From positions 41,619 through 105,618 of the forward strand of contig NZ_JAAHGU010000008.1 in the NCBI RefSeq assembly GCF_010692685.1: 64,000 nt of DNA, read 5' to 3'. The translations under genes and the position numbers were made by a program. Each line of letters opens with the position of its first letter. Position 1 is the stretch's first letter. This stretch comes from Okeania sp. SIO2F5 (lineage in GTDB: Bacteria; Cyanobacteriota; Cyanobacteriia; Cyanobacteriales; Microcoleaceae). The notes beneath the pieces are model-generated. The model was given only the letters and a program-made list of their open reading frames with translations. It was not told the DNA's origin and searched no databases. Below are positions 7,365-61,198 of this stretch, piece after piece.

Positions 7365-8510
7365 TCACTAAAGTCAAAAGTCAAAATTCAAAAGTCAAAA
7401 TTTAAAAGTGATATTTTAAGTACTTAAAACTTCTACTATACAGTAATCTCAGCTTATTATTTGACTTCATCATTTACCAACTATTTGTCACATTTTTTAA
7501 GTGAAATGGTATTAGTTAATTAGGGCTTGCTGATTAAATCTAAAAGTATTTACAGATAAAGGTTTTCGCCTTTTTGGAGCCTTTAAAAAGTGCCTGGTTT
7601 TCAGCTCTTCATGCTCAAAAAGGAGCGTATTTTAGGCGCATAGTTAGGCAGAAAAATCAAAGGACAATTCTTACTGCTACCTCCTCGTTCATTCCCTTTT
7701 CTCCTGTCTTCCCCTCCACGGTCGGGGTTAGGGGTGGGTTGTCTCCTACCCTTACCCATAAGACTTTTTCAGCAAACCCTAATTACAACAGTTTACCGAA
7801 AAATTGAGTTTAAAGCTTTCCCCTTCTAATATCAAATCTCACGCATTTTTGCTACATCTTCTTCAGCGGGGGAGTAGGGGAGTGGGTAGGGACGTTGCAT
7901 GCAACGTCCCTACAGGGAGAAGTAAACATAAGAATAATTAACAATAACTGGAGTGCTAATTATCAAAAAAGTTATTCAATCTGTATTAATTACTTAATAA
8001 TTTAAGTGTCATTTAAGTTAAGTATTCTTTTTTCATGCTTGGTATAAAACCAAATATCACACATTTTTGCTGCGTCTTCTTGAAAGCAGGCAATAGTAGG
8101 GACGTTGCATAAGTGGTGGTGTATTGTCCCGCAACGTTTGTTAGGAGGTAGGGCAGTGGGAGCATCTTACTCCCGTGCCTAGTATTCCTTTTTGCTGTAT
8201 ACCATTATGCTTCTAAGGACTATCAGACCTAAGACCGTTTCACTAAAGTCAGAAGTGATACTTTAGGTACTTCAAAGCTAGGCATTGCTGAGGGGCGGGA
8301 TGAATATTCAGTGGGGTGGGTATCCTGCCTGGGGTGAAAATATAAGGAACGGGGAACGGGCAAGATGCCCCCAAACACAAAACTATTAAAATCATCCCGC
8401 ATTTATGCAACGCCCAAAGCTATACTCTACAGTAATTTCAGCTTATTATTTTACTTCATCAGTTACCAACTATTTGTGACATTTTTTAAGTGAATTGGTA
8501 TTAAGACCTA
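7365..8510. repeat. Segmental duplication of ~150 bp of glyS-upstream DNA, at 7365-7520 and 8235-8510. The second copy is split by a ~130-bp insertion. The region also holds palindromes GTAGGGACGTTGCATGCAACGTCCCTAC at 7890-7917 and 8098-8150.
   Basis: Direct alignment by eye of CGTTTCACTAAAGTCA...GGTACTTCAAA and of CTATACAGTAAT.TCAGCTTATTATTT.ACTTCATCA.TTACCAACTATTTGT.ACATTTTTTAAGTGA. Confidence 0.6.
7518..7784 (+). mobile_element. MITE family A copy 1, with TIR AATTAGGGCTTGCTGA ... TCAGCAAACCCTAATT.
   Basis: 16-bp terminal inverted repeats. It has a conserved core (GATTAAATCTAAAAG ... TTTTAGGCGCATAGTTGGGCAGAAAAAT ... TTCTTACT) shared with 6 other copies in the window. Confidence 0.7.
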
Positions 8511-9618
8511 AGACCTACCACCTAACACCTAATTCTGTGCAGTCTTAAATAAAATTGGTATAAGTTATAAGTTTTCAATTAACTATTCTATGACTATTAT
8601 TTGTATTTTTAAATATTCTATAATTATCTGGAATAAATATTTTTCATCTTTATAAAAAAGCATAATTTTTAATTAACATCTGCTATTTTTTATACCATAA
8701 TTAATCTTCTACTATAAGCTCGTAAATATATCATATTGAAGTTAGTTAAGCCAATAATAAGTAAATTCTTAATCCAGCACATACCTCTGGCAAAAATAAA
8801 AATTCAATCCTTTTTTCTTTCTAAATATTTATCTTTCCGGTCTTCCATCACCTATTCAGCAACTCTGGCAACAAGTTTAACTATTTTGTGTCTGAAGAGA
8901 CAGACTTCTTAAGCAAGACAATTTATTTAGCGATCGCTTTTATTCCCTATTATGTATATTAGTTAATAGTTTGAATACAAAATCATAACCGTACTTGGGT
9001 ACTAATAAGTACATCCTGGAGACAAAAAAATTTTGTGAACCATAAGCATAAGATCAGGGTTATAATTATGGTTAAAGATGTAGACTAAAATTATGCCAAT
9101 AACTTGCACTTGAGCCATCAATATTCATAACTCTGATGTTTGAAGCCAAACACTGAATAATCCGAAATTGAGTCAGGCAAAAATGAAGAAAATACTCAAG
9201 CACTAAAATATGTAACTTCTACCTCTACCTATTTACTATTTAAAGTATTTATTCTCATTCAATTCTCAGCAAATAGTATCTACCTATTCAATTTTATCTC
9301 TTACTTTAGGGCTGATTAGGCTAAAATAGAATTTGATGAAAATATATAAAGTTGTTCTTCAGGTGAGAGGCCATGATATTTGAATAACTCACAGACTTGT
9401 AACTTAAATTTTCCTATCATAAATGTTAGAAAGAGAACTCCCGTTATAATCGCGAGATTTAACTGTGAGAGTGTCAAAGAAATTCAATTATGATTATGTC
9501 CAAAGCAAAAAATTGGGTAACCAAAGACATTCGTATAATAATGCTTGCATAAGCAAACATTACCATGAGGTATATTCCTCTACCCCAGAAACACTCTAGC
9601 TTACTATAAAGTCACACT

Positions 9619-10404
9619 ATGACCACTTTCAATATGTACATGGCTGCCGCAACCAAAACTAAAAGCACTGATGTCTGCACTTATAGAGAGATTGCTAAAT
9701 TGAACACATCAGCAATTATGGCTTGTGGGTTGACAATGACCTACCAATCTGGAAAACAGTCATACCAGGTACTGAAGAATATTGACTTGACAGTAAACAA
9801 AGGTGATGTCCAGTTATTGATGGGACCATCTGGTTCTGGTAAAACTACTTTGCTGTCAATCTTAGCAGGATTATTAACACCCACATCTGGTAGAGTCTGT
9901 CTCCTGGGACAAGAAATCACTAAAATGTCCAGAAGCCAACTAGCCAAGTTTAGACTTAAGAATATTGGCTTTATCTTTCAGGGATTTAATTTGTTCCCTG
10001 CATTGACGGCAACAGAAAATATAGAAGTGGCTCTGAATATGAAGGGTATTAAAGGTAAGGCAGCAAAACATGAAGCTCAAATACTTTTAGAGCAAGTAGG
10101 ACTAGCACCTCAGGCCAAGTTACATCCAAGAGATTTGTCTGGTGGCCAAAAACAAAGAGTGGCTATTGCCCGCGCACTATGTGGCAGTCCTAGAGTTATT
10201 ATGGCTGATGAACCCACAGCAGCATTAGATTCTCACAGTGGTCATACAGTTATTGAGTTACTGCGTCGTCTTGCTAAAGAAGGTGGTTGTACAGTATTAA
10301 TGGTCACTCACGATCCTAGAATAGTAAGTTCTGCTGATAGAGTAGTTTATCTTGAAGATGGGGTTGTACAGGAAAATAAACAACTATCCGATCATATTCT
10401 GTAA
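9619..10404 (+). CDS. ABC transporter ATP-binding protein of the DevA/LolD/MacB-like family. The start is possibly the internal Met near 9717.
   Basis: Walker A is GPSGSGKTT, the ABC signature is LSGGQKQRVAIARAL, and Walker B is IMADEPT. No permease gene lies adjacent. Confidence 0.85.
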   Translation: MTTFNMYMAAATKTKSTDVCTYREIAKLNTSAIMACGLTMTYQSGKQSYQVLKNIDLTVNKGDVQLLMGPSGSGKTTLLSILAGLLTPTSGRVCLLGQEITKMSRSQLAKFRLKNIGFIFQGFNLFPALTATENIEVALNMKGIKGKAAKHEAQILLEQVGLAPQAKLHPRDLSGGQKQRVAIARALCGSPRVIMADEPTAALDSHSGHTVIELLRRLAKEGGCTVLMVTHDPRIVSSADRVVYLEDGVVQENKQLSDHIL

Positions 10405-10527
10405 TTTTAGTAATATATTCACATCTAGAATTATTGTAACTTTCCAGATATTAATCTAACCCTGGGAACTCATTTTTTTTGTTTACTTTTCTTTTTCTTT
10501 GTTTTTGTTGGCTACTTCTGTATTGTT

Positions 10528-11571
10528 TTATTTAATTGTAAAATTTGTTCCTCGATAACACCCTTGAAAAGAAGTTAAATTAGTATTAGTAATTTGCTCA
10601 AGCTTAGTTACTAATGAGGTAGTACTAGGATGGTGGTGAAATTTATTCCACTGATAGGCAAATTCACCAATATAGCTACCTGTTCCTTGATAACTAAACT
10701 CTTCTATAGGTATCCCAGAAATACCAGAAATTTCTTGGTCATGATATCCATTAATAATTACTTTCTCTAATTTAACTTCTTTACCCAAACTAACATTCCA
10801 ATGTACAGGTTCATAAGAAGAGAGAGCTAAAATGACAGGCTGATTTTTTCTTTCTATTTTGACATTAATTATGCCTGTGGGATGATATCCACCATAATGA
10901 TCTGAGCGTGCCTCATAAACACCTACCAAGTGTAACTCCTTCTCTCCATTAGAAGTATTAAAAAAAGATGAAAAATTATTACTACCTCCAACACCACAGG
11001 TAAAACCATCAACTACTGCTGTAGGCAATTCATTTTGATTAGCTTGCTGTTGAAATTTTGACCTCATTAATAACCAGCTACCAAAAGTAATACTAGCTAT
11101 TAAAACACTGGCAGTTATCACAATTAAAGATTTAATATTTTGGTCAAATAAGTTTATTCTAAGTCGTTTCTTTGGAGAATAATTAAAATTTTGACTAACC
11201 TCAGAAACTATATCTGCTTTTTCATCCAGACAAGCTAATAACTTTAAACTTTCTGGTTGTTCTAACATAGTAGAAACAATTTTTGCTGTTCCTACATATA
11301 GATTTCTATTTTTTCTATCTACAATTAACCAATATTGATCGGTTTCATTTAACTGATAATCTTGTACTTGAGAATTTACCAGAGGATGCTGAAGAAAAAT
11401 CTGCCAAGCAACACTAATACCAGCACCGATATTTTTACCGTCATTGTACATAACTTGGTCAATTTCTGGTTCCCAGTGAAAAGCTACCCAGGGATGGTTA
11501 GATTTATATCCTAATGACTTTTCTAACTGTGGGTTGGCAGTAAAATTTAAGAGTTTGACGAGATTAGACAT
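10528..11571 (-). CDS. Hypothetical single-pass membrane protein.
   Basis: 347-aa ORF with one predicted TM segment (LIVITASVLIASITFGSWLLM). No recognisable domain. Confidence 0.5.
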   Translation of the reverse strand: MSNLVKLLNFTANPQLEKSLGYKSNHPWVAFHWEPEIDQVMYNDGKNIGAGISVAWQIFLQHPLVNSQVQDYQLNETDQYWLIVDRKNRNLYVGTAKIVSTMLEQPESLKLLACLDEKADIVSEVSQNFNYSPKKRLRINLFDQNIKSLIVITASVLIASITFGSWLLMRSKFQQQANQNELPTAVVDGFTCGVGGSNNFSSFFNTSNGEKELHLVGVYEARSDHYGGYHPTGIINVKIERKNQPVILALSSYEPVHWNVSLGKEVKLEKVIINGYHDQEISGISGIPIEEFSYQGTGSYIGEFAYQWNKFHHHPSTTSLVTKLEQITNTNLTSFQGCYRGTNFTIK

Positions 11572-11683
11572 ACATCAGTTTCCAACTTGATGAACTGCAG
11601 ATGGGCGAGACAGTTGGGCTTTTTTGGAGAGATTTTTTCCGCTGCTGACATCAAACGTTAGGCAGACTTCTATAGCTCAATTC

Positions 11684-12011
11684 AGCAACGCCTAATTAGG
11701 GTTTACGCTCAAAAGTCTTTTAGTAGGGGTAGGAGACAACCCACCCCTAACCCCGACCGTGGAGGGGAATACAGGAGACAGGAGACAGGAGACAACCCAC
11801 CCCTAACCCCGACCGTGGAGGGGAGAAATGGATCGGGAGCGAGGAGGTAGGAGTAAGAATTTTCCCCAGATTGTTCTGCCCAACTATGCGCCTAAAATAC
11901 TAACTTTTTGGGCATGAAGAACTGAAACAGGCGCACTGCAATTCGACCCCAAAAAAGCACTTGTCTTTAATATGTCAATGCTTTTAGATTTAATCAGCAA
12001 CGCCTAATTTT
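11684..12011 (-). mobile_element. MITE family A copy 2, with an internal 40-bp unit duplicated in tandem.
   Basis: The ends are CAGCAACGCCTAATT / AGGGTTTACGCTCA. It has the family core and 2 copies of GGAGACAACCCACCCCTAACCCCGACCGTGGAGGGGA. Confidence 0.6.
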
Positions 12012-14282: not shown

Positions 14283-14602
<320 letters not shown>

Positions 14603-17960: not shown

Positions 17961-18100
17961 GCGTAAGTCCTAATCATGTCCGGATAATTAGCGATCAAAA
18001 AACTTTCTCCTTTTCCTCCTCTTCTTTCTTTCCTCCTGACTCCTGACTCCTAACTCCTAACTCCTGACTCCTGACTCCTGACTCTTTCATCGTTATTCCC
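17947..18100. mobile_element. MITE family B copy. The left TIR is CATGTCCGGATAATTAGCGATCAAAAAACTTTCTCC and the STRR cargo is CCTGACT/CCTAACT x7. The right end is missing or fused to the 3' end of the next gene.
   Basis: The left end is identical to the copy at 40351. No matching right TIR precedes the stop of ORF 18116-18829. Confidence 0.45.
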
Positions 18101-20420: not shown

Positions 20421-20496
20421 GTTGGCAGAGAATATTTAGAGTTTGCTGAAAAAAGCAAAATGTGGGAAGTGTGGGGAGGGTGGGAAGACCGAGAAA

Positions 20497-20768
20497 GTAG
20501 TCGGAAGAATTGTTCGGGAGACTTTTTTGTTCCGGAATACTTTTGGAACGGGATACTATCCAAAGGTAAACCAGAGCATCTCAAAAAAAATCTGCTGAAA
20601 AATTTGGACAGTAACTTTTACTCCTTTATCATTACATATTGAGCACTACCAAAGTAGGAAGAATTGTTCGGGAGACTTTTCTGTTCCGGAATACTTTCGG
20701 AACGGGATGCTACGCAAAGGCAAACCAGAGCGTCTCAAAAAAAAATTTGCTGAAAGCTATCTGTAGGG
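20497..20768. repeat. Two tandem copies of a ~113-bp unit (AGTAGG(A)AGAATTGTTCGGGAGACTTTT.TGTTCCGGAATACTTT.GGAACGGGAT...) separated by ~45 bp.
   Basis: Direct alignment. Each unit has the hairpin GTTCCGGAATACTTTTGGAAC. A family D-like palindrome (GGCGAATGGC-type) follows at 20760-20850. Confidence 0.6.
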
Positions 20769-20861
20769 GGCGCAATTCGGAGCTTTACCTTAGCAAATGC
20801 CATTCGCCCCTACTAGATATGGCGCTTGGTGCGTAAGCCTTGTTAGACAAAGCAATATTTT

Positions 20862-20910
20862 TCTTCTTCCCTCTTCCCTCTTCCCTCTTCCCTCTTCCCT
20901 CTTCCTTCTC
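20862..20910. repeat. STRR heptamer array CCCTCTT x5.
   Basis: Read directly. Confidence 0.8.
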
Positions 20911-20912
20911 AA

Positions 20913-40350: not shown

Positions 40351-40490
40351 CAGGGTTATATCATGTCCGGATAATTAGTGATCAAAAAACTTTCTCCTTC
40401 TTCATTCTTTCTACCCTCCTGTCTCCTGTCTCCTGTCTCCTGACTCCTTCGTCGTTTATTTATAACTGTTCAACCGGACATGATATTACT
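40351..40490. mobile_element. MITE family B, complete ~140-bp copy (TTATATCATGTCCGG ... CAACCGGACATGATAT) with CCTGTCT x3 STRR cargo.
   Basis: Perfect 13-bp TIRs. The core GATCAAAAAACTTTCTCC is shared with 17947 and 31064. Confidence 0.65.
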
Positions 40491-40861: not shown

Positions 40862-41200
40862 CTAACCAAGCAAAAGTCCTTTATACCACCCAACGTCTGG
40901 GCAAAACTTTAAATCCTTTTTCAGTTCTGAATAGTTAATTTCCATCCACTTGCTCATTGCCACTGGCTTCTCTAGTTTTATTCTATAACCTTGATCTGCC
41001 CAAACAATTTTCAGATTCGGGGCCTCATTTGATGACTTGAAGAAATATAAACTTAGCTGCTGTACAATACCTATACAATTCCGGCAAAACTTGGTAAAAC
41101 CTGAGTAATGCCAGTCAAGATGTTTGCTTCTTGCTTCAACCTGGGAGGCCGCCCTCTTCCAGTTCACAAGCGTAAATTCGGGTACAGCCTACCCTATTTT
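40862..41200 (-). ncRNA. Putative TnpB-associated omega (right-end) RNA region.
   Basis: Inferred only by analogy. In IS605-family elements the guide RNA overlaps the tnpB 3' end and the right end. Boundaries were not determined. Confidence 0.2.
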
Positions 41201-42371
41201 TTTGATTAATTTCCCCATACTGAGATAACACCAGTGCTGCATTCAAGTCCCGGTCTATTATCATTCCAAAGTTAGGGCAATCAAAGGTGCGGTCTTTTAG
41301 CTTTAATTCTTGATGAATATGACCACAACTATGACAAGTTTTAGAAGATGGAAACCACTGGTCAGCTAGCACTACTGTCCCACCGGAGCTTACGATTTTG
41401 GTTGTCAATCGTTGCCGAAACTGATAAAATCCTTGCCTAGCTATTGATGCTGCTAATTTACCATTTTGCATCATTCCTTTCACATTTAAACTCTCTAAGC
41501 AGACGTGCTTGACTTGAGTCACTAATTTTGTAGTAGTTTTCTCTATGAAATCTCTACGCACGTTAGCAATACGACAATGGTACTTCGCGAGTTTTTTGTA
41601 ATATTTAATCGCATTTTTTGAAGGTGGTTTACCTTTACCTCCTACTTGTTTATTGCGATTGCGCCATTGAAACTTAGCCAGGTTTAATTGCTCTAGTTTA
41701 ATAGAGTCTGGGAGACTTACAACTTCATTTTCTCTCTTTTTTTGGTTTGCTATACTTGCAAATTGTTTGACTCCAACATCTATACCAAAAGTTTCGTATT
41801 GTCGCTTATCTAATAGGGGATGAACTGGCAACTTCTCAGCTTCAATACTAAAACTAACAAACCATTTTTCCCCTGTTCTACTAATAGTAAAAGTCTGACT
41901 TGCTGTGGTGTAAGGTATTGATTCCCATAATCGAAAAGTCCCTAGTGTTGGTATTTTAATTTTTTTACCAGGGTTAATTGTAACTTTTCCATTACCGTCA
42001 TAAACAGTAAAAGATTGTCTGTCTTTTTTCCTTTTCAACTTAGGATACTTACTGGTTCCTTCTTTATACCGTTTAAATGCTTCACCTAGATGTTGAAAAG
42101 CACTTTGATAAATGCGGGACGAATAATTGTTGATCCAGGCATATTCTGGCTGCTTTTTTACATAGTTAGTAAAGACTTTTTTAGCTTCTAAAATACGTAA
42201 TGCGTAACTCAAGCTCACTTCCTGACCACGTTTGTTAACTTTGGTCATGGCAGAAGTTCCATTAACCATACTGAGGCCATAGTTGTAAACAAAACGAGCA
42301 TAACCAGCACATTTCGCCATAAATGAGCGCTCCTGGTTACTGAGTTTTAATTCAAGTTTTTTGGCGTACAA
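41136..42371 (-). CDS. tnpB: TnpB (OrfB) RNA-guided endonuclease-like transposase accessory protein.
   Basis: N-terminal HTH (KCAGYARFVYNYGL), RuvC-like blocks, the zinc ribbon CHSCGHIHQELKLKDRTFDCPNFG, and C-terminal DRDLNAAL. Confidence 0.9.
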   Translation of the reverse strand: MYAKKLELKLSNQERSFMAKCAGYARFVYNYGLSMVNGTSAMTKVNKRGQEVSLSYALRILEAKKVFTNYVKKQPEYAWINNYSSRIYQSAFQHLGEAFKRYKEGTSKYPKLKRKKDRQSFTVYDGNGKVTINPGKKIKIPTLGTFRLWESIPYTTASQTFTISRTGEKWFVSFSIEAEKLPVHPLLDKRQYETFGIDVGVKQFASIANQKKRENEVVSLPDSIKLEQLNLAKFQWRNRNKQVGGKGKPPSKNAIKYYKKLAKYHCRIANVRRDFIEKTTTKLVTQVKHVCLESLNVKGMMQNGKLAASIARQGFYQFRQRLTTKIVSSGGTVVLADQWFPSSKTCHSCGHIHQELKLKDRTFDCPNFGMIIDRDLNAALVLSQYGEINQKNRVGCTRIYACELEEGGLPG

Positions 42372-44616: not shown

Positions 44617-44687
44617 GGTAGGCGTTGAAAATTATTGTTATCGCAAACCATAAAACTGAAGAGAAGAGGTTTTTTCGCACTTTACTG

Positions 44688-44998
44688 AATAATTAGGGTT
44701 TGCTGAAAAAGTCTTATTGGTGAGGGTAGGAGACAACCCACCCCTAACCCCTCCGGTGGAGGGGAATACTGGAGACAGGAGACAACCCACCCCTAACCCC
44801 TCCGGTGGAGGGGAGAAATAGGAATGAGCGAGGAAGTTAGGAGTAAGAATTGTCCCTGAATTTTTCTGCCCAACTATGCGCCTAAAATACGCTCCTTTTT
44901 GAGCGTGAAGAGCTGAAAAACAGGCACTTTTTTTGAACAAAAAAAGGCTAAAACCTTTATCTGTAAATACTTTTAGATTTAATCAGCAAGCCCTAATT
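44688..44998 (-). mobile_element. MITE family A copy 3, with its internal 40-bp unit duplicated.
   Basis: TIRs are AATTAGGGTTTGCTGA / TCAGCAAGCCCTAATT. The core is conserved. Confidence 0.7.
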
Positions 44999-45845
44999 AA
45001 GATTTAAAGCCTCTACGCATCAAAACAAGAAAAAAAAATCTTTTAGTCAATCCTCTGATTTTAAGGAAAGGGAGTTGTTAGTTATTAATTACTAAAATCA
45101 GATTTTCTCTACATAAAATATTCATTAAATTTCTCCCTATATTACAACTAAAAAAAATAGCTTTAATTCTGACATTTTTCATAATTCATAATTAACTTTT
45201 AATGTGGAGTCATAGAACTAAAATTTTTTAGTACAGCCATAAAAATTCAATACTTTGCAGGTAATAGTTTGAACTCAAGCTGATAGATGATAGCTGAGTG
45301 CCTATAGATAAAGTATAAATAAATATAGAGAAATATAGAGTACGGCAATTGCTATTACTCTTTCAGGAAAAACCGAACTTAAATAAATATTAAACCTTGA
45401 TAACTTGAAAGAAGTAAAGTCAAAAATTAAAATTCAGCCCGATTGATTAGTTACTAATATCTGGCAGTAGTTTTTTTATAAAAAATGTTGCCAACTAGGA
45501 GATGGGTTGAAACTAACTTCTACTTAAGAAAGCATAACAATCTTATCTGAGTTGATGAATATTGCATCTGAAAAATCAAAAAAACACTTGAAACTAGATA
45601 TACAGCAGATTAGGTTGTATATGAAGTACAGATGTTAACGAGGGAATTTCTACAGTATGGGCATCTTGCCCGCTATGGGTGTGCCTCACACCTGATGAAA
45701 TCTGATGTATATATAAAATATATATTACTTTTGACTTTTAAGACTTGACATTTATCATTAATGGTTTTCTTATAATTAATCATTAAGCAATCATAATATT
45801 ACATTCACATTAATCTGAAAAATATTAAAATAAGGAGATAGATAA

Positions 45846-46974: not shown

Positions 46975-47645
46975 TAAACTCAGGACTTACGCAAATTGAC
47001 TTTTAACCCACCATCTGTAGGGGCGAATACCATTCGCCCTCGCTATATGTAGGGCTTGCTGAATAGCATTGTAATCAATACCTACAAATGCTTCCAGGGT
47101 TAAATAGGGCTTACCGATCTAATCTAAAAGCATTGACATATAAAGATTTTAGCCTTTTTGGGGCTTTGAAAAAGTGCGCCTGTTTCAGTCTAAAACGCTC
47201 AAAAAGGAGCGTATTTTAGGCGCATAGTTGGGCAGAAAAATTCAGGGACAATTCTTACTCCTAACTTCCTCGCTCATTCCTATTTCTCTCCTCCACCGGA
47301 GGGGGAGGGGCGAGGGGTGGGTTGTCTCCTGTCTCCAGTATTCCCCTCCACCGGAGGGGGAGGGGCGAGGGGTGGGTTGTCTCCTACCCCAGCAAAAAGA
47401 CTTTCCATACGCAAACCCTAAATATTGCTGAAAAAGTACAAGGTTTTTGGCTCAATTTGCATCAAAATGCTAATATTTTTCCCCTGACTATCAGAAAATT
47501 TGGCCGTAGCAGATAGTCTAAACTTTTACCTGTTGCCTATCATCACCATCAGACTTTTTCAGCAAACCCTAAATATAGTGAGGGCGAATGCCATTCGCCC
47601 CTACAGATGGTGTTTAAAAGGTTGATTTGCGTAAGTCCCGATCTA
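46975..47645. mobile_element. Composite nested element. A family D palindromic element is split at its centre by a MITE family A copy (copy 4, 47050-47573), which itself has partial TIR duplications.
   Basis: Outer ends are AGGACTTACGCAAAT...TTTGCGTAAGTCC. The inner arms are CTGTAGGGGCGAATACCATTCGCCCTCGCTATAT | family A | ATATAGTGAGGGCGAATGCCATTCGCCCCTACAG. Confidence 0.6.
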
Positions 47646-47733: not shown

Positions 47734-50145
47734 TTAACGTGGCTGAATATACTCATAATCATAATATCTCTGATAATAAGAATCAGCTTGATCCCCATTA
47801 CCAACTATTCCCAACATTGGTACTCCTGCCATACTCAAGTCATCTAGAGCTAAACTTAAAGCTTCTCGCTCTGTCTTACCTAACCCCACTACTAACATTA
47901 ATCCATTAGTACAAGCTGATAATAAACTAGCATCTGCTCGGCCCAATAATGGTGCTGTGTCGCAAATAACTAAATCAAAATTTGTAGCTGCATCTTGAAT
48001 TAATTGGTGCATCTGCGGTGAGGACAAAATTTTCGTTGGGTCTGGCGGAATTGGGCCAGATGTTAAAACAAATAGATTTTCATCCACAGGCGATCGCTGA
48101 ATTGCTGTTTCTATTGGCACACCATCGGCAATTATACTACTCAAACCCTGTTGATTAGAGAGTCCCATCATATTATGAATTTGTGGACAACGTAGGTCGC
48201 CATCTATTAATAGTACCCGTTGACCCATAGCGGCAGCTGCCCTGGCCAAATGACCTGCTACTGTAGATTTACCATCCCCTGGTGTTGCGGAACTAATAAC
48301 AAAAGAATGAATGGGATTTTCTATATTTAGGAGACGAATATTAGCATTTAAAGTGCGGAAGGCTTCTTGAAAAGCTGAAGGATATAATACTAAAGATGAA
48401 CTGTTATTTTCTTTTAGTTCATCGTTCATCCAGTTTCTTTGTTCATGTATAGGAATTATTCCTAACAATGGCAACCCAATAGATTTTTTGACTTCTTTTG
48501 GTGTTTGAAAAACGTCTTGTTGAAATCCTTCTCCAAATTTAGCTAATAATATTCCTAATAATAATCCTGTTACTCCTCCGAGGGCAAGATTTAATATCAT
48601 ATTTGGAGAGATTGTTACTAACTCGCCATTTTGAGTTTTTAGTAATTCTGGTGGTGCAATTAATTCCCAAGGTTGTACTTTTTCAAAGACTACTTCTATC
48701 TGTAATTGCTGTTGTTTTTCTAATAAATCTTTGAGTATATTATTTGAGTTTTTCAATTCTTGCTGAATTTCTTGATAACGCCTTACTACTTCTGGCATTT
48801 TTGAAATATATTCATTTAATTTTGCCTCAGCTTCATCTAATACTTTACTCCGGACTTCGAGAACTTCAATTTGATTAGCTGCCAAGATCATTTTATGAAT
48901 TAACTCTAAGCGAACCGAGTCTTGAAAAGCTAAAGCTTTTTTACTTACTTCTTCTATATCTCTACCAATAACTTTTTCTGCTTCTTGATTTAATAAAGGC
49001 AGTAATTTTTCTCGTTGTTGATATAAAGCTCGCATTTGCGGTGCTTTTTCTTTAAACCGAGCTGATTCCAGAGCAATTGTTGTTTCTACTTCCTGTAATT
49101 TATTTAGTAATGATTGATATCTTGCTGCTTGACTTAAAGCTGAAGCCATCAAAGCTTCTTCTGGATTAATTCCCAACTGACTCTGTAATATAGCATGGAG
49201 CGATCGCTGTTGGTCTAGTAATATTTTATTCTCTAGTTTTTGTGATTGAATTTGATTACTTTCTGCTGCTATTTCTTGACTTTTGAGTTCTGGGTTAATA
49301 AACAGATATTCTTGTTGTAGTTGCTGTGACTCCTTCCGTAATTCTTTGATTTTTTGTTGATTTTTTGAAATTTGTTCCTCAATAAAATCCAATCCTTCAT
49401 CAGTATTAGTTTTCTGGTCATTTTGACCATACTCAGTGTAAGCTGCTGCTAGTTTATCTAAGACAAACTGAATTTTTTTGACATCCGAATCTCGATAGCT
49501 AACTTCTATAATTTTTGTATTATCTAATCTTTGAATTTTTAATTTCTCTTGACTAAAAAGTTGTCTCTCTGGTTTTTTAAACAAAAAATTATAATTTATT
49601 TCCGGATATTCTTTTTGTATCTCCCCAATTATTGACTGCATAAATTGCGGACTTTTTAATACTTGAATTTGAGATTGATAATCTAAGCCATACTTATCTA
49701 ATTCTTGATTTTGTTGAATATTTTGGTTGGGAGATGAAGTGATTTTCTCTTGCCCTGTTCCATAAATAATTTGTGCTGCTTGTTGTTCCCAATTTTCTTG
49801 ATTGTTTGTAGTTAAATTTCGTGTTTCTGTACCTAATTGATAATTAACTGGATTAGTAATTGTAACTGGTTCAACTAATATTTTAAATTTTCCCTCATAT
49901 ATAGGAATCTGATTTAAAGTCCAGAAATATGCTCCTGTTGTTGTGGCAGTTGCGACACTGAAAATCAAGAAAAAACGATGACATACTAAATTCCAAATTT
50001 TATTTTCTTTTTGAGATAATTTTTCCTCTAGTTGATGAAATTCAGCTTCATAGATATATTGATTCTGATTAAAATTTTTCCTCCGGTCTAAGAGTTTACC
50101 GTGATTATTATATAAAGATAATTGAGAAATTTTTTCTGGTTCCAT
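47734..50145 (-). CDS. Polysaccharide co-polymerase / tyrosine autokinase (Wzc/GumC-like).
   Basis: N-terminal Wzz-like domain with a TM. The C-terminal BY-kinase has Walker A ATPGDGKSTVA, a DGDLRCPQ motif and a C-terminal Tyr cluster YYQRYYDYEY. Confidence 0.85.
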   Translation of the reverse strand: MEPEKISQLSLYNNHGKLLDRRKNFNQNQYIYEAEFHQLEEKLSQKENKIWNLVCHRFFLIFSVATATTTGAYFWTLNQIPIYEGKFKILVEPVTITNPVNYQLGTETRNLTTNNQENWEQQAAQIIYGTGQEKITSSPNQNIQQNQELDKYGLDYQSQIQVLKSPQFMQSIIGEIQKEYPEINYNFLFKKPERQLFSQEKLKIQRLDNTKIIEVSYRDSDVKKIQFVLDKLAAAYTEYGQNDQKTNTDEGLDFIEEQISKNQQKIKELRKESQQLQQEYLFINPELKSQEIAAESNQIQSQKLENKILLDQQRSLHAILQSQLGINPEEALMASALSQAARYQSLLNKLQEVETTIALESARFKEKAPQMRALYQQREKLLPLLNQEAEKVIGRDIEEVSKKALAFQDSVRLELIHKMILAANQIEVLEVRSKVLDEAEAKLNEYISKMPEVVRRYQEIQQELKNSNNILKDLLEKQQQLQIEVVFEKVQPWELIAPPELLKTQNGELVTISPNMILNLALGGVTGLLLGILLAKFGEGFQQDVFQTPKEVKKSIGLPLLGIIPIHEQRNWMNDELKENNSSSLVLYPSAFQEAFRTLNANIRLLNIENPIHSFVISSATPGDGKSTVAGHLARAAAAMGQRVLLIDGDLRCPQIHNMMGLSNQQGLSSIIADGVPIETAIQRSPVDENLFVLTSGPIPPDPTKILSSPQMHQLIQDAATNFDLVICDTAPLLGRADASLLSACTNGLMLVVGLGKTEREALSLALDDLSMAGVPMLGIVGNGDQADSYYQRYYDYEYIQPR

Positions 50146-50653: not shown

Positions 50654-50688
<35 letters not shown>

Positions 50689-51039
50689 GCTAAAAAAACT
50701 TAGTATTTATGAAGATACCAAATGGGTTCTATAATTTACCATTCTCTCAATCATCTTCTCTTTTGACAACGCACGAATTTTTGTATTGCAGGCATATTAT
50801 CCGCCACAGATACACATCACTGAGATGAAACACCCTGTATCTTCATTCAATAATTTTAATTCTAAACTAAGACGCATCTTAATTTTATATTCTCTGTTGG
50901 GGAATTTTTTTCGAGTTTCATATTTATAAATTTAACAGTTAAAAATAAGACGTTGTACAGTGACGAATGATTTTAGATTTTTGATTGAATTTGATTTTGG
51001 ATTAATCAATTGCTAGAATGATTAATTATTCCTCTGCTG

Positions 51040-51254
51040 ATTAAATCTAAAAGTCTTTACAGATAAAGGTAAGTGTTTTTTTAAGTATCAAAAAGTGCTA
51101 GGTTTTAGGTGGTAATAGTTCAAAAATTTAGGATTTTGGTCAAGAGTTGGGCAGAAAAATCACTCTTATGATTCTTCCTACTATCTCCTCTATAATTCCC
51201 CTAACTCCTGACTCCTCCCCTCACTCACAAGACTTTTTCAACAAACCCTAATTA
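51040..51254 (+). mobile_element. MITE family A copy 5, with a degraded left TIR.
   Basis: Core CTGATTAAATCTAAAAG ... GGGCAGAAAAATCA ... and right TIR TCAACAAACCCTAATT. Confidence 0.5.
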
Positions 51255-52049
51255 ATGGTTTTTTTAGTCAAAGTCTAACTAATTTTTGGCAATATCATTC
51301 CATAGCGTGCAAACCCAAAAATAAAGTTATTACTATGACTCAAACAAGATAAATTTAAGAATATTTCATAGCAGACCTAGAACTGCTACATATCTTTATT
51401 CAATAATTTTATAGCGGTTTTCACAAAGGTAGACTACAGACAAAATATAAGTATGTTTGAAGTCCAGATAATTCACACCTAATAGCTGTATTCTATGTTA
51501 ATGAAAACCGCTATAATTCTCAGCTAAGACCAAATTTAGTTTTATACTATCTTTTGCCTGTTGGCTTTCCCAAAATTGAGATATATAGCTTAAATTTTTA
51601 ACAGTTTAATAAACATCTCTAAAATTATATAAAGCTTTGAGCAAATACTTGTATGAGGAAAAGTTTTTCCCACTAACTATTGTATTTTCCCTACTATGAT
51701 ATGGAGCTTCTGATATATCAAAGGAAAAGTTGGCGTTGGTAAAGAGCGTGTATGATATTAATCTTAATTCTTTAGGAGTCAGGAGTCAGGACAGAAGAAA
51801 TAAGAAGAAAGAGTAGTAGAAGAGAAAGTCTTTTGTTAACGCTCTGATCCAGGCATGATTCATACCTCAAATTACCAACGCCGAAAAGTTTCCCACTATT
51901 GCCTGTTCCCTAATATATATGGAGCTTCTTAATATAGCACTCGAAGTAAATGTTAGGAACATCAAAAGCTTAAACAACGCAATATTTTCCCTTCTTCCTT
52001 CTTGCCTCTTCCTTCTCTCCTAGATAACTAAAGCCTTCTTCCTTCCCAG

Positions 52050-53705
52050 CTAATCAAAAATATCTAAAAATACCCCTAAAATTCTATTAATAGGACTGAA
52101 AGGAGCTAAAACACCTCTAACATTATCAGTCAAAGCTGCCCTACCAGAACGACCAACTAAAATTACATCATTATTAAGTAAAGTAGGGTTAGTTTCTTCA
52201 TTAACTTTTGCAGAAAAATCTACCTGTACCTGACGACGAGTAACCGTACCATTCGGGTTGAGACGAATAAGCTCCACTTCTTCAGTTTCAGCTCTTCCCT
52301 GGTTAAAACCCCCTGCCGCTAATAAAGCTTGATTAAGCGTACTATTAGGAACCATAGAAATTATCCCAGGATTAACAACTTCTCCAATAAGATTAATTTT
52401 TAGATTGCCAGGAGAAAAACTTGATGCGGTAACTTCAGCTAATTCATCCAAGTTAACTTCATCTGCTACTGGCACATAAATTGTATCTCCTGACTCTAAA
52501 ACTAGGTCTTGGTTTAAATCTCCATTTTGCAGAAGTTGCCAAAGGTCTACTTTTATAACTTGTTCTGTACCAGCACGAGTTAGTCGGCGTACCATTATTT
52601 GCCGAATATCTGCAGATGGAGTAATACCTCCTGCCATTTTAATCGCTTTAGTGACAGTATGCAAATTAGTATTTTGAGAAGATGAAATATTGTTATCTGC
52701 TTCCGTAGAATCTGAGTTTTCTTCTGTAGCTGAAAGTTGACTTTGGTCAATACCTGTTTCTAATATATATGGACCAGGCCGTGCCACCTCTCCCACCACT
52801 GCAATATTGAGAGGTTGAGTATTAGTACCAGCAAAGTTAGCATTTACTAATTGAGAAGACTCTACTGGATTAACTTCAGTAATACTAGGGACAAATAAAG
52901 TATCCCCATCCCGCAGAGGAATATCTTGACGCAAGTTACCATCTTGCAGTAGTTCCCATAAATTAATATTGATGACTTGCTCTGGAGCATTGAGTTGGGT
53001 GCGACGAATTTTGATTTGCCTGACATCTGCTGAAGTTGTCACTCCACCTGCTACCTGTAATGCTTTAGTCACTGTAGGTAATTGAGTCCCACTTTGAGTA
53101 TCCTCCCCTCCATCGACAATGGGAGAAATAGTATATGAACCTGGATGTTGGACTTCTCCAGCGATCGCTATTTTTAATGGACGTGCTGCTAGGAGATTGA
53201 GATTAACTATAGATATTTGTAGATATTCGCTGTATTTTTCTTGAATTAATTCTTTTGCTTCATCTAGAGTCTTTCCCTCAACTAATACGTTACCTACCAA
53301 TGGCAAATTAAGAGTCCCATCAATTTGCACTTGATGTTGGCCATTTTTCCCACTATATTCTGGTATGTTAAAGATATCTATTTGAATGCGATCGCCGCCG
53401 CCCAGTGTATATGCTGTTGAGTCTGGTAAAGGAGTTTCTGGTTCAGGAATAGATATTGGTTCTGGTGCTGGAGCAAGCAGTGGTGGTTTTGCTTCCGTAC
53501 CTTCAGGCAAAGGTTCTGTGAGTTTTGGTAAAGTTGAGTTTGCTGGTGCTTTCTGAAATTTTTGAGAGAGGGGTTGAGCTTGTGCAGAATATGCCAATCC
53601 CCAGCAACTGGATAATAAAACTATTATTCCATAACTTAGATTTTTGGACAAAGATATGATTAGCAAAATGTCATCTTCCCAGTATCTAGATTTATTTTGC
53701 CTCAT
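52050..53705 (-). CDS. Polysaccharide export protein (Wza/GumB-like) with tandem SLBB domains.
   Basis: Signal peptide, a Poly_export-like block, and three SLBB-like repeats (V/ITKAL..AGG.T..ADVRQI). Confidence 0.75.
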   Translation of the reverse strand: MRQNKSRYWEDDILLIISLSKNLSYGIIVLLSSCWGLAYSAQAQPLSQKFQKAPANSTLPKLTEPLPEGTEAKPPLLAPAPEPISIPEPETPLPDSTAYTLGGGDRIQIDIFNIPEYSGKNGQHQVQIDGTLNLPLVGNVLVEGKTLDEAKELIQEKYSEYLQISIVNLNLLAARPLKIAIAGEVQHPGSYTISPIVDGGEDTQSGTQLPTVTKALQVAGGVTTSADVRQIKIRRTQLNAPEQVININLWELLQDGNLRQDIPLRDGDTLFVPSITEVNPVESSQLVNANFAGTNTQPLNIAVVGEVARPGPYILETGIDQSQLSATEENSDSTEADNNISSSQNTNLHTVTKAIKMAGGITPSADIRQIMVRRLTRAGTEQVIKVDLWQLLQNGDLNQDLVLESGDTIYVPVADEVNLDELAEVTASSFSPGNLKINLIGEVVNPGIISMVPNSTLNQALLAAGGFNQGRAETEEVELIRLNPNGTVTRRQVQVDFSAKVNEETNPTLLNNDVILVGRSGRAALTDNVRGVLAPFSPINRILGVFLDIFD

Positions 53706-55496: not shown

Positions 55497-56420
<924 letters not shown>

Positions 56421-57191
56421 TCTAATTACTTGTAAATTCCGATCATTGAGGAGTTAGAAGTTTTCTAGCTCCTGATTTAATTTAATTTTAAAGTGAAGGT
56501 TGGTAATTTGTAATTTGTAATTAGCAAACTTCTCAAATAGCTTCACTGTAAAATTATTCAGATAAATTTTCATTACTTAGCAAAATTTTCTATAGTCTCC
56601 TTCAGCATATTCTAGTAAATCTTCCCTAGTCATCCTACTAACTTTCCGCAAATCAATACTTTTTCCACTCCTAAAAATTATTGTCGCTCTTGTTCCTATA
56701 ATTTTTCTTGAATATCAACCACGAGATAATTCCGTTTATCTTTTCCCCAGTGAATTTCAGCTTCATTCTTTCACTTTTAAACATTTGATTTTCCATCCAT
56801 TTATCATCCCATTGGTAAGGATGCCAATAGTCTTTAACTAGCTATCAGCATTTTAGCACTAAGCTTTCAGCACGCTAAAAGCTTGAGTTTACAGCAGCTT
56901 CGGAGTTAGTGAGGTACAAAGTTTGATCGCTTTAGTAAATATAAATCTCCAGAAAAGGTTCTTAAACCTTTATAGTACTGTTCCAAAATCGGTATTTTTG
57001 GAGAGGTCTAATAGGGAAGATAGATTTAGTCTTCAATTGTACCTCACAATCCTCAAAAGTGCTGTAAATCCCCGACTTCTATAAGTCGTTTAATTTTACA
57101 GAGGGGTTGTCCCTTCTAAAAAGCTGACTACTAAATGCCAATCAGCTGTTTGCGCAGCATTCTGTCAGGAAACGCTTTTTAAGTGCTTTAA

Positions 57192-57449: not shown

Positions 57450-57740
57450 AACTAAAAGGGCAGATTTTAAGTATTATTTTCCCCTCTTAATTGGCATCCA
57501 ATTATTTGATATTATTTTGTACTTTTTATTTTGGGTTTAATATCAAATCCGATAGCATCGGTGCTATTCAGTGTTAAATATATGTACGGGTGAACGGCCG
57601 TTCACCCCTACTCCCATACTCAATAAAATGTAGAAAAATTTTTGATAAATTGTATATTAATTCCGGTCTAGACGGTGTTGACAATTAGTTGAGGTTTGTA
57701 GACAAGAAGTAGCTTGTTGAAGACTATCCCCATCCACTTT

Positions 57741-57790
57741 TTTCTTCTTCCTTCTTCCTTCTTCCTTCTTCCTTTTTTCTTCCTTCTTCA
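57741..57790. repeat. STRR array TTCCTTC x6.
   Basis: Read directly. Confidence 0.8.
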
Positions 57791-57796
57791 AGACTT

Positions 57797-58000
57797 AATT
57801 AGGGTTTGCTGAAAAAGTCTGTTTTAAGGAGTAGGGGAGCGGGGGAGTAGGGAAGTAGGGGAGTAATTTTTGGGCTACTCTCCTGCCCAAAATGCTGACT
57901 TTTTGAGCATAAAGAGCTAAAAACTAGGTACTTTTTCCAGAGCTAAAAAGGCTAAAACTTTTATCTATAAATGCTTTGATATTTAATCAGCAAGACTTAA
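57797..58000 (-). mobile_element. MITE family A copy 6, abutting the stop codon of the substrate-binding protein gene.
   Basis: TIRs AATTAGGGTTTGCTGA / TCAGCAAGACTTAATT. The element ends at 58000 and the gene stop codon is at 58001-58003. Confidence 0.65.
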
Positions 58001-59791
58001 TTACTCATTCTCAGGTGATGGAGAAACTTCTACTTCTTGCTCATTTATTGGTGAAGAAATAGACTCTTGATCCTGTTGACTTTCTTCTGTGATAACTGGC
58101 TGTTCTGATTCTTCTTTTTCCGAACTTACAGGAGACTCAACTGCTTCTTTTTCTTCTATAGTATTAGAAAATTTTACATCATTAAATAAAGGTCGATTAA
58201 AAGCACCTATCTTAAAACCTTCAACATCTGAACTACTAACATAATTCCACATCCAACCAGGACTATAAAGTGGCATCATCACTGCATTTTTCAACAAATA
58301 TTTCTGAACTTCTATAACTTTTTCTTGTCGTTCTTCTAAATTAGTTGTAGTTCGCATTTCTGTTAGTAATGTATCCAGTTCATCACTTTGATAACCCCCC
58401 ATCCAACCAGGAGAATGCCACAATGTATAAAGAAAATCTGGGTCATACCAAGACCACCCCATCATATCAATAACACCATTACCTTCTGTTTGACTATTTT
58501 CCTGTTTTATTCTGGCATTAAGAGTACCAATATCCATTGTTTCTAACTTAGTTTTGATTCCTACTTCTTCTAGTTGAGTTTGAAGGTTTTCTATTACTTT
58601 TTGACGGTTTCCTCCTTTCCAGGTTAAAAGAGTTATTTCTAATGGTTGATTCTCACTATAACCAAGTTCCTCTAATAAAATTTTTGCTTCTTCTGGATTT
58701 GGTTTAATACTAAACTCGGAACAAAGTTTTTCATCACTAGGAAACATCACATCTGCGATCGCGCATTCGGAAGGTTTAACTAAACCTGCAAATACTTCCT
58801 CCGTTGCTTTTTTGGGATCTATGGCATAAGTTACTGCTTGTCTTGCTCTATCATCATCAAAGGGAGGTCGAGAAGTAACGAACTCTAAAAATACTATTTG
58901 ACCAGTATTTTCAGCAGTATGAAGTTTGAATTTTAAGTCTTCCTTGAGAGCAGAAATTTCTTCTAGTGGGGGTTCAGTTAAATGAATTTCTCCAGACTTG
59001 AGTGCTGCTAAACGTGCTTCCCTTTCTGGCATAGTTTTAATTATCAATTTTTTGATGTAGGGAGTACCAGAGTTTTCTACTTGTCGCCCATAATTTTTGT
59101 AGTCTGGGTTGGCCTCTAGTACAAGTTGTTCCCCTTGAGTCCACTCAGTAAATTTGAATGGACCTGTACCTATTGCTCCTTCTATGCCAAATTTGTTGTT
59201 ATAGGTTTGAATAGCAGAAGGACATATCATGCTGGAGTAAGGATCGGCGAGAAAGCGGAGAAAGGGGCTAAAAGCTTGAGACATTTTGACTGTAACTGTG
59301 AGGTCGTCTACAACTTCGACAGTTTCTATCGGTCCCCAACTGTCTTTGGTGTAGTTTTCTGTCTCAGGGTTGATCGCTCTGTCAATAGTAAATTTGACCG
59401 CTTTAGCATCAAAGATTGTGCCGTCATGGCATTTGATATTTTCGTTGAGTGTAAAGGTATATTCTTGGCCATTATTGCTGACTGACCATTCTTTGGCTAG
59501 GTTTGGTTGAATTTTACCTTGGTCATCGAAGGCCAAAAGTGTTTCGTAGATTTGATCGATTATTTGTCTAGATAAGGGTGATGTTGATTTGTGGGGATCG
59601 AGGGTGTCAGAGTCACTGTAGCGTGCCCAAACAAGGGTACCTGGTTCGGGGGTTGTTGGTGTTTCTGAGTTTCTGGTGGTTTGAGTGTTGTTGCAGGCGA
59701 TCGCTAAGGTGGCAACTATTGATGCTACTGCTATGAAACGCCAAATTTTTTGATGAGTTAGTTTCTTGAAAAAATTCTTTAGGGAAAACAT
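58001..59791 (-). CDS. ABC transporter substrate-binding lipoprotein, family 5 (peptide/nickel type), with an acidic Ser/Glu-rich C-terminal tail.
   Basis: Lipobox LAIAC and SBP_bac_5-like length and blocks. The last ~50 aa are low-complexity E/S/P. Confidence 0.8.
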   Translation of the reverse strand: MFSLKNFFKKLTHQKIWRFIAVASIVATLAIACNNTQTTRNSETPTTPEPGTLVWARYSDSDTLDPHKSTSPLSRQIIDQIYETLLAFDDQGKIQPNLAKEWSVSNNGQEYTFTLNENIKCHDGTIFDAKAVKFTIDRAINPETENYTKDSWGPIETVEVVDDLTVTVKMSQAFSPFLRFLADPYSSMICPSAIQTYNNKFGIEGAIGTGPFKFTEWTQGEQLVLEANPDYKNYGRQVENSGTPYIKKLIIKTMPEREARLAALKSGEIHLTEPPLEEISALKEDLKFKLHTAENTGQIVFLEFVTSRPPFDDDRARQAVTYAIDPKKATEEVFAGLVKPSECAIADVMFPSDEKLCSEFSIKPNPEEAKILLEELGYSENQPLEITLLTWKGGNRQKVIENLQTQLEEVGIKTKLETMDIGTLNARIKQENSQTEGNGVIDMMGWSWYDPDFLYTLWHSPGWMGGYQSDELDTLLTEMRTTTNLEERQEKVIEVQKYLLKNAVMMPLYSPGWMWNYVSSSDVEGFKIGAFNRPLFNDVKFSNTIEEKEAVESPVSSEKEESEQPVITEESQQDQESISSPINEQEVEVSPSPENE

Positions 59792-60256: not shown

Positions 60257-60736
60257 TTGTTAGACGAACAGGCGAAGAAAACAATATTGCGTAAGATTCC
60301 TCACGGATTATACATCTGTGGTGTTAAAGATGGTGAGGAAGTTAATGGTTTTACGGCCAGTTGGGTAATGCAAGCATCTTTTGCGCCTCCCCTAGTTGTT
60401 AATTGTGTAAACAAAGATTCTATATCCCATGCCATGATTAAGGCTAGTGGAGTATTTTCTCTGAGCTTTTTAGCAGCAGGACAAAAAGATTTAGCTCAAC
60501 AATTTTTCAAACCTCAACGTCGTGTGGGAAATAAATTTGAGGATATAGAATTTTATCTGGGAGAAACTGGATGTCCAATTATTTCAGATACTCTTGGTTA
60601 TGTGGAATGTAAAGTTGTTGGTGCTGTAGAAGAGGGCGACCATACTGTATATGTAGGAGAAGTAATTGCTGCAGGTGTACATCGTGAGGGAGACCCTCTA
60701 TTGTTAGAAAGTACAGGTTGGAATTATGGTGGTTAA
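60257..60736 (+). CDS. Flavin reductase-like (FMN-binding split-barrel) protein.
   Basis: Flavin_Reduct pattern (GLYICGVKDGEEVNGFTASWVMQASFAPPLVV). Confidence 0.75.
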   Translation: MLDEQAKKTILRKIPHGLYICGVKDGEEVNGFTASWVMQASFAPPLVVNCVNKDSISHAMIKASGVFSLSFLAAGQKDLAQQFFKPQRRVGNKFEDIEFYLGETGCPIISDTLGYVECKVVGAVEEGDHTVYVGEVIAAGVHREGDPLLLESTGWNYGG

Positions 60737-60744
60737 TTGTCATA

Positions 60745-60842
60745 TATCAGGACTTACGCAAGTTTACCTTGAAAACGCCATATGTAGGGGCGAATGGCAT
60801 TGGCCTTCTCAATTTATTGTCCGTGCGTAAGTCCTGATATAT
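60745..60842. repeat. Family D palindromic element (ATATCAGGACTTACGCAAG ... CGTGCGTAAGTCCTGATAT) with an inner GTAGGGGCGAATGGCATTGGCC palindrome remnant.
   Basis: Read directly. Confidence 0.6.
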
Positions 60843-60961
60843 TAATTAGCACTCAGCAATCGGCTTTTTGATGTTTATGAGTGCTATATAGATATAGTTT
60901 TGATGAATAGCTCTTTAGCTCATATCTACTAGATTAAGCTATAACCATTTTTTTTTGTTAA

Positions 60962-61198
60962 TTATTGCTTTGCCGATTAAATCTAAAAGCATTGACATAT
61001 AAAGACAAGTGCCTTTTTGGGGTCTTTCAAAAGTGCAAAAGTTTCAGCTCTTCATGCTCAAAAATTTGATATTTTAGGCGCATAGTTGGGCAGAAAAATC
61101 ATTCTTGCAATTCTTACTCCTACCTCCTCTAAATTCTCCTGTCTCCTGTCTCCTGTCTCCTAACCCCTACTAAAAGACTTTTTCAGCAAACCCTAATT
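60962..61198 (+). mobile_element. MITE family A copy 7. Its right TIR ends 12 bp before the MIF-like gene start.
   Basis: Core and right TIR TCAGCAAACCCTAATT. The left TIR is degraded. The internal cassette is TCTCCTG x3. Confidence 0.6.

Follow-up and report, generated by a model that had tools for sequence, protein, structure and literature searches.

A stretch of 64,000 nucleotides (nt) of Okeania sp. SIO2F5 (contig NZ_JAAHGU010000008.1, positions 41,619 to 105,618; hereafter the window) contains several copies of a short dispersed repeat, designated family A. [quoted passage not shown] The initial annotation of the window had read the repeats as a MITE family, and this reading was borne out by (i) terminal inverted repeats (TIRs), (ii) a target duplication whose two copies covary, (iii) filled and empty orthologous sites, (iv) recurrence across species and (v) the lack of coding capacity. 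In all respects open to testing, family A behaves as a classical MITE; its distinctive traits are the duplication of a TANNTA target and a microsatellite that bears a GC-rich module. A comparison with Nostoc and Anabaena families was suggested at the outset; the host is an Okeania (Oscillatoriales/Microcoleaceae) and not a heterocystous Nostoc or Anabaena.

Ends, target duplications and mobility of family A

All seven copies announced for the window (c1 to c7; Table 1) were found at their places. They were recognized by motif matches, by a BLAST comparison of the copies with the window (which returned the seven places and a few bare heptamer tracts) and by nhmmer with a hidden Markov model built from the copies, which recovered the same seven; an eighth related element surrounds copy 4. 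The TIR motif AATTAGGGYTTGCTGA matches the window 14 times with up to 2 mismatches, against 0.14 matches expected from shuffled sequences. Further copies were sought in loci gathered from a species-level genome collection through an exact 26-nt string of the core. Within 915 kb of these loci (at least 11 genomes) nhmmer gave 228 hits, 104 of them full length. The family A consensus comprises 241 nt, and full copies span 193-454 bp, with a length mode of 230-300 bp.

A TIR of 16 bp had been proposed. The inverted repeat is real, but the true TIR is GGGYTTGCTGA...TCAGCAARCCC (11 bp), and the other 5 nt (AATTA) belong to a duplicated TAATTA. Beyond this the repeat continues imperfectly to approximately 18-24 bp; over 18 positions, about 15 match. 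Strict TIR matches in the collected loci fall almost exclusively at the ends of family A hits (208 of 218). In 33 full copies picked independently of the core pattern, the termini (approximately 24 and 22 nt) are the most conserved parts of the element, which fits predicted protein-binding sites.

The flanks have the layout TANNTA-GGGCTTGCTGATTAAATCTAAAAG...AAGACTTTTTCAGCAAACCC-TANNTA. The same hexamer was present on both sides of 82 out of 93 copies in a first extraction and of 75 out of 92 in a second one, for which 10,000 shuffles gave 30.9 on average and 43 at most. In the first extraction TAATTA (52) is the most frequent hexamer, followed by TATTTA (10), TAAATA (9) and TAAGTA (7); among its 40 copies with a central dinucleotide other than AT, 35 have identical NN left and right. 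The target-site duplication looked for is thus present in most copies: it is the flanking TANNTA hexamer, mostly the palindrome TAATTA. A MITE derived from IS630/Tc1-mariner elements, with duplication of TA only, was rejected, as the NN between the TA pairs is directly repeated (e.g. TAAGTA...TAAGTA). From the sequence, a 6-bp duplication of TANNTA and a 2-bp duplication with TA-ended repeats could equally be read; one copy with TAATTG on both sides (L088) favours the former, while two others (L045 and L030) favour the latter, unless they were mutated after insertion. Neighbouring elements often abut with one hexamer in common, as is expected if a duplicated target is reused.

Mobility of family A is settled by orthologous sites that are filled in one genome and empty in another. 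A copy of O. hirsuta (L085) has as its counterpart in strain SIO1I7 (L111) a single TAATTA, and a copy of strain KiyG1 (L104) corresponds in SIO1I7 (L030) to only a (TAATTAA)n run. The site of c6 is empty in KiyG1, where the sequence ...CTTCAAGACTTAATCACTCATT... is uninterrupted; KiyG1 has a family A copy approximately 400 bp from this site, and there is none at that position in the window. Three filled/empty pairs, together with c6 and c5, vary between species or strains. Copy c5 is present in the window and in a near-identical strain only (L133), and is lacking in four strains at 98% identity. In its spacer (approximately 50960-51900, between 47734-50145 and 52050-53705) unrelated repeat-rich DNA was found in loci L128-L130 and L132, and only L133, at 99.9% identity, matches the window. 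Both c5 and c6 differ between strains that have identical HetR protein. Two copies are shared with other genomes: c1 is common to the window and O. hirsuta (L020), with identical flanks, and c7 to the window, O. hirsuta and KiyG1; its shared presence and decayed left end therefore mark c7 as an old insertion.

The core 26-mer was found, among the matches listed, in more than 120 stretches of at least 11 genomes, so that the family recurs well beyond the window. The matches listed are nearly all from Okeania (SIO2B3, SIO2C9, SIO1I7, SIO3B5, KiyG1 and O. hirsuta PAB10Feb10-1), the remaining ones being from two Dapis strains and three metagenome-assembled genomes (MAGs), namely of a Trichodesmium, of a Microcoleaceae member and from a tar biofilm. 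The window itself is 97-98.6% identical to contigs of O. hirsuta and 99.9% identical to fragments of GCA_010692585.1. The density of copies, described initially as very high, amounts to 7-8 per 64 kb, but it is similar in other Okeania DNA, where approximately 1-2 extra copies per 10 kb occur.

Among the bacterial genomes surveyed in PMC11602168, the greatest diversity of MITEs is that of Okeania sp. KiyG1 and O. hirsuta, with conserved MITE types making up 225 of a total of 278 in KiyG1 and 221 of a total of 320 in O. hirsuta. The same two genomes are rich in family A. That text gives counts only, without descriptions of families, target sites or internal structures against which family A could be matched. 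Our literature search found no name or description for family A, and a search with its end sequences returned unrelated primers only.

Family A encodes no conserved protein. A coding role of the shared frame (...AQKGAYFRRIV...) was rejected, as no ORF (open reading frame) is conserved across copies: out of 79 copies, 1 keeps the most frequent frame open across both ends, and the median open stretch is 47 aa. The three ORFs reported within copies (7574-7807, 44638-44940 and 47228-47516) do exist, but are spurious, since their frame is not conserved. Long ORFs are avoided by 156 out of 158 copies, which are intergenic; convergent genes flank 37 copies and divergent genes 11.

The cassette and its GC-rich module

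As initially described, the copies share a core and have a variable segment near the right end. This segment is indeed variable, but it is not replaced wholesale from copy to copy: it is a heptamer microsatellite, consisting of (TGTCTCC)n with n = 0-5 or, in c6 among others, of CCCCTAC-type units, and a discrete GC-rich module is inserted in it in some copies and lacking in others. The module has the layout CCCCTCC-loop-GGAGGGG-spacer-GGGGTGGGT (27-34 bp), i.e. a 7-bp hairpin followed by four G-runs. It interrupts the heptamer tract in 41 out of 90 copies, with one to three modules in each; one element (L032) has four in tandem. The loop is TGGGA, ACCGGA or ACGGTC and the spacer TTA, CTA or GAGGGGCGA, in mixed combinations. 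The top strand carries a motif of four G-runs (G3+ separated by N1-7) in 36 of 90 copies, the bottom strand in 2.

The cassette varies between orthologous copies of strains that are 98% identical. Copy c1 and its O. hirsuta orthologue differ in the loop and spacer of the module, in one heptamer, in one hairpin loop and in one further substitution. In the pair L060/L114, with flanks 97.5% identical and elements near-identical outside the tract, one member carries the module and the other a different tract. Differences between the c7 haplotypes are almost confined to the hairpin loop that also differs in c1 and to the heptamer tract, and in the closest pair (L050/L055) a single base differs outside the cassette. 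Two modules lying within one copy (c2, c3 and the inner element of c4) never differ from one another; c3 and c4 have the duplication junction in common and differ in the spacer of both modules, which points to local homogenization.

The module is also found elsewhere. In the collected loci, 15 out of 90 modules fall outside family A, several of them flanked by direct repeats of 4-7 nt, while every module that the search pattern detected in the window sits inside family A. In four strains, an unrelated MITE family (Table 1) has the same module within its TGACTCC tract, in a copy located at approximately 1700-1850 of loci L128-L130 and L132. Heptamer microsatellites also stand outside MITEs in the window, at 14322-14354, 50655-50695, 57740-57790, 20862-20910 and 7862-7895, the units of these stand-alone tracts being (GGAGACA)n, (CCTGTCT)n, (CTTCCTT)n, (CCCTCTT)n and (GGGGAGT)n. 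Tracts of heptamers are a feature of the whole genome and not specific to family A.

Outside the cassette, family A is composed of alternative blocks that occur in almost all combinations, a mosaic which we read as frequent short-patch exchange between copies. An AT-rich hairpin, CTTTTT-loop-AAAAAG, lies at approximately positions 53-66 of the consensus (e.g. 7574-7590 and 61008-61025 in the window). Its loop shows clustered multi-base changes between orthologous copies, with the stem and the rest unchanged; it is a second mutational hot spot beside the cassette.

Copies in the window and their surroundings

The positions of the copies are summarized in Table 1. The intervals given by the initial annotation were at the right places, except that c5, with its decayed TIR, starts 12 nt before position 51040. 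The repeat reported at 47050-47573 (copy 4) is present as well, but this interval is composite and holds two nested elements. The inner element lies at an internal TAAATA of the outer one and has its own TAAATA duplication. The interior of the outer element, whose flanking hexamers are unequal in the window, recurs in two metagenome copies (L124 and L125) with matching hexamers (TAATTA and TAGATA, respectively), so at least two subfamilies share the family A ends.

Table 1. Family A copies and other repeats of the window (positions within the 64,000-nt stretch).
Feature	Element	Span with flanks	Strand	Flanking hexamers	Remarks
c1	7523-7779 (257 bp)	7517-7785	+	TAATTA (7517-7522, 7780-7785)	one GC-rich module (7711-7738)
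c2	11699-12004 (306 bp)	11681-12010	-	TAATTA (11693-11698), TAATTT (12005-12010)	two modules (11740-11767, 11796-11823)
c3	44696-44993 (298 bp)	44690-44999	-	TAATTA on both sides	two identical modules (44737-44764, 44786-44813)
c4, inner element	47107-47418 (312 bp)	47101-47424	+	TAAATA (47101-47106, 47419-47424)	complete; two modules with the longer spacer GAGGGGCGA, one at 47343-47376, the other upstream inside the element
c4, outer element	47052-47569	47046-47575	+	TATGTA, TAAATA	family A terminal repeats, different interior (...AAAATTTGGCCGTAGCAGATAGTCTAAAC...)
c5	51028-51248 (221 bp)	51022-51254	+	TAATTA on both sides	left TIR decayed (TTCCTCTGCTGA); core diverged; without GC-rich module
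c6	57802-57997 (196 bp)	57796-58003	-	TAATTA on both sides	cassette of CCCCTAC-type heptamers
c7	60965-61193 (229 bp)	60959-61199	+	TAATTA on both sides	left TIR decayed; cassette (TGTCTCC)3 only
Second MITE family (~130 bp)	40358-40490; partial, ~17973-18090				ends TAATATCATGTCCGG / CCGGACATGATATTA; own heptamer tract TGTCTCC / TGACTCC
GTAG-tagged hairpins resembling repetitive extragenic palindromic (REP) sequences	47017-47046 (+), 47578-47607 (-); 57584-57611, 20765-20813, 60784-60810				GTAGGGGCGAAT-loop-ATTCGCCC

The ends of two copies have been altered. Beside c2, a solitary TIR-like 12-mer, TTCAGCAACGCC (11681-11692), repeats the other end of the element and produces a 16-nt direct repeat. 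The terminal bases of c6 (57994-57997) read GACT in place of ACCC, i.e. the terminal GGG is gone and the element ends with AGT. This AGT equals the 3 nt after the other copy of the hexamer, and the direct repeat has grown from 6 to 13 nt, CAAGACTTAATTA (57994-58003 and 57789-57801). The c6 terminus is intact (GGG) in four strains at 98% identity. By its sequence, the change has the appearance of a micro-conversion in which the two duplicated hexamers took part, and c6 should thereby be immobilized. Such extended direct repeats are no general feature of family A; for c2, the search for orthologues returned the same strain only.

All copies of the window, whose G+C content is 36%, fall between ORFs. 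The neighbouring genes are ordinary chromosomal ones: glyS, genes of an ABC ATPase, a DnaJ-type protein, an oligopeptide-binding protein and a MIF-family protein, as well as ispH, hetR and polysaccharide-export genes. The contig of a MAG of the same species breaks exactly at c3.

Several other insertions and repeats were noted. Downstream of hetR, the window has a 340-bp insertion relative to KiyG1 (56838-57177; L079), which does not belong to family A, and the same spacer of KiyG1 contains an insertion of approximately 120 bp and a family A copy, both lacking in the window; small insertions thus have a hot spot here. Two tandem units of approximately 130 bp (GGAAGAATTGTTCGGGAGACTTTT...CTGCTGAAA) at 20490-20760 belong to another repeat family, and to this region, not to family A, a TIR-like match at 20437-20449 was assigned. 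The hairpins at 47.0 and 47.6 kb form an inverted doublet, similar to a REPIN (a hairpin-forming pair of REP sequences), in whose centre lie the nested MITEs of copy 4.

Origin, relatives and significance of family A

The course of events that we propose is as follows. Family A would insert at TANNTA, mostly TAATTA, leaving the hexamer on both sides, and would be mobilized in trans, with a DDE-type transposase recognizing the conserved 20-24 nt at each end. Selection would then remove copies from genes and from divergent promoter regions. Within the element, the (TGTCTCC)n tract would change its length by slippage, the hairpin and G-quadruplex-type module would be gained, lost or exchanged within the heptamer tract, and the alternative blocks of the remaining part would be reshuffled between copies. 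The likeliest cause of this reshuffling is probably short-patch gene conversion or template switching among hundreds of dispersed copies.

A search for the transposase partner was performed in the window and in 137 collected loci, and no transposase flanked by family A ends was found there. Ends that have equal hexamers and lie in pairs at a distance of 0.6-6 kb proved to be independent neighbouring MITEs, enclosing ordinary genes or a TnpB-type ORF. The collected loci contain no within-genome repeats of 600 bp or more, and none of the solitary ends outside family hits (10 of 218) lies beside a transposase. Clustering of 523 ORFs yielded only TnpB-like multi-copy proteins, with TnpB-type proteins as the main multi-copy cluster of transposon type and two smaller clusters TnpB-like as judged by eye. 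An ORF of the window (41136-42371, minus strand) resembles those TnpB/IS200-IS605 OrfB-type proteins which occur 13 times in the Okeania loci. A metagenome scan for left ends that continue with a non-MITE base had three hits, of which two are complete MITEs and one (L123) has no detectable right end or transposase ORF.

Several points weigh against family A being a MITE of the proposed kind. The exact 26-mer used for collection biases both copy density and core conservation upward. No autonomous element with family A ends was found in 979 kb of DNA of the Okeania group, in the three metagenome hits or in plasmid and viral collections; this absence is weak evidence, because assemblies (MAGs) break exactly at repeats. 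Mobilization in trans and the class of the transposase are therefore inferences, and we know of no insertion sequence (IS) family that a 6-bp TANNTA duplication fits. As regards the cassette, its change is known from the outcome, and the mechanism is surmised.

The GC-rich module might be an independent, ultra-small mobile element, similar to the small dispersed repeats (SDRs) of Nostoc, for which independent movement has been proposed; it would insert into heptamer tracts, and the MITE would be just one of its landing pads. Its presence and absence at the orthologous copies L060/L114, the different variants at the same site in c1 and O. hirsuta, its occurrence in the tract of an unrelated MITE family, the modules outside family A with their short direct repeats and the free combination of loops and spacers all speak in its favour. 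We nevertheless consider it possible but rather unlikely, as in L060/L114 the entire tract is exchanged, which is no clean insertion, the identity of paired modules fits local duplication with conversion, the pattern-matched modules of the window all lie within family A, and no clean filled/empty pair for the module only was obtained. A bolder version, which is speculative and which we hold with still less confidence, is that the module is a protein-free SDR-like micro-element of Oscillatoriales, homing to heptamer microsatellites (those of two or more unrelated MITE families and of some sites outside MITEs) and turning over faster than the 2-3% background divergence by a transposase-independent templated process, for which template switching at hairpins or G-quadruplexes is an example.

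The other explanations concern family A as a whole. Conserved as it is internally, and with several short hairpins, it could represent a functional RNA or regulatory element (a small RNA, terminator or promoter) kept by selection; c7 ends 17 nt upstream of the ATG (61211) of the MIF-family gene and is kept in three species, and c6 abuts a stop codon, its hexamer (57998-58003) including that of the SBP_bac_5 gene (58001-59791, minus strand). This is very unlikely in view of the target duplications and empty sites, which show transposition, and of the unbiased orientation relative to co-directional genes (27 vs. 40). Scans of the window with Rfam and for tRNAs gave no match. The fold of the whole element is only weakly better than that of shuffled sequences (z = -2.1 and -2.3), and a long hairpin was rejected, as only the ends of the element pair. 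A promoter or terminator role for c7 was rejected too, there being no such signal in or around it on the strand of the downstream gene; the sole promoter-like hit nearby is on the opposite strand, outside the element (60723-60750). Individual copies could have been co-opted for function. Still less probable is that the copies are ends or internal-deletion fragments of a larger known IS, an idea prompted by the left end, in which GGGCTTGCTGATTAAATC matches GGCTTTGTTGAATAAATC, from the inverted repeat of IS903, at 13 of 18 positions (by eye). The 37-mer used as the IS903 end was confirmed as the common enterobacterial end adjoining aph(3')-Ia. Yet the copies have a tight length mode, both ends, empty sites and duplications of their own, by which they are bounded rather than forming pieces of a larger IS, and among pairs of ends 0.6-4 kb apart none has a transposase between them. 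Moreover, duplications of IS903 are 9 bp long, those of family A 6 bp (or 2 bp); assignment to the IS903 group of the IS5 family was also rejected for want of an IS5-type transposase beside such ends, and the resemblance may serve as a lead, not as a family assignment. Descent from REP/REPIN palindromes, spread by a REP-associated tyrosine transposase (RAYT), is brought to mind by the GTAG-tagged hairpins of the window, an inverted pair of which flanks copy 4, but its probability is close to negligible. REPs are palindromes of 20-40 bp that are tagged with GTAG or CGTC and make no duplication (PMC3733652), whereas family A has no GTAG tag, is approximately 240 bp long, is not palindromic, and has the TIRs and duplicated target that REPs lack (PMC3733652).

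Family A, most probably a MITE as argued above, may be compared with MITEs of other bacteria. Nezha, a MITE of Anabaena variabilis and Nostoc PCC 7120 (130-170 bp), has its TIR in common with ISNpu3 (Zhou et al. 2008, summarized in PMC3184786). Like family A, it has TIRs, flanking direct repeats, and filled and empty sites between sister species. It belongs to Nostocales, whereas family A, with its consensus of 241 nt, belongs to Microcoleaceae and has no identified parent IS; compared by description, the two are set apart by size and host. An interior tandem repeat of variable copy number, which in this case is a minisatellite, is also recorded for a MITE of Porphyromonas gingivalis in the abstract of PMC4596501, which mentions no inserted hairpin module; phylum and repeat unit differ from those of family A.

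The GC-rich module may be likened, by description, to SDR4-6 of Nostoc punctiforme, sharing with them the hairpin core, the unrelated contexts (family A, the second MITE family and stand-alone sites) and the presence or absence at orthologous sites. The SDRs are reportedly very small modules of 21-27 nt, with conserved flanks around a hairpin, and are said to be nested in heptamer repeats and MITEs and to differ between orthologous regions. The module differs from them in its host order, its length (27-34 nt) and its G-run tail. SDR5 of Nostoc is reported to insert into the HIP1 sequence (Elhai et al. 2008, Genome Res 18:1484).

Family A accounts for a noticeable part of Okeania's non-coding DNA, and contigs end at its copies, which explains the shattered assemblies. 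Its insertions, such as c5 and c6, are markers for strain typing, and in genome annotation the spurious ORFs called within copies should be masked. TANNTA is an unusual target, which takes in stop codons and the AT-rich ends of genes. Of interest beyond this is the cassette only: with it, the nested and little-understood behaviour of micro-repeats described in Nostoc is seen in another cyanobacterial order as well, and its comparisons give dated, orthologous examples of module turnover. If the module should prove to be a micro-element in its own right, the MITE would be the vehicle that spreads its landing pads.

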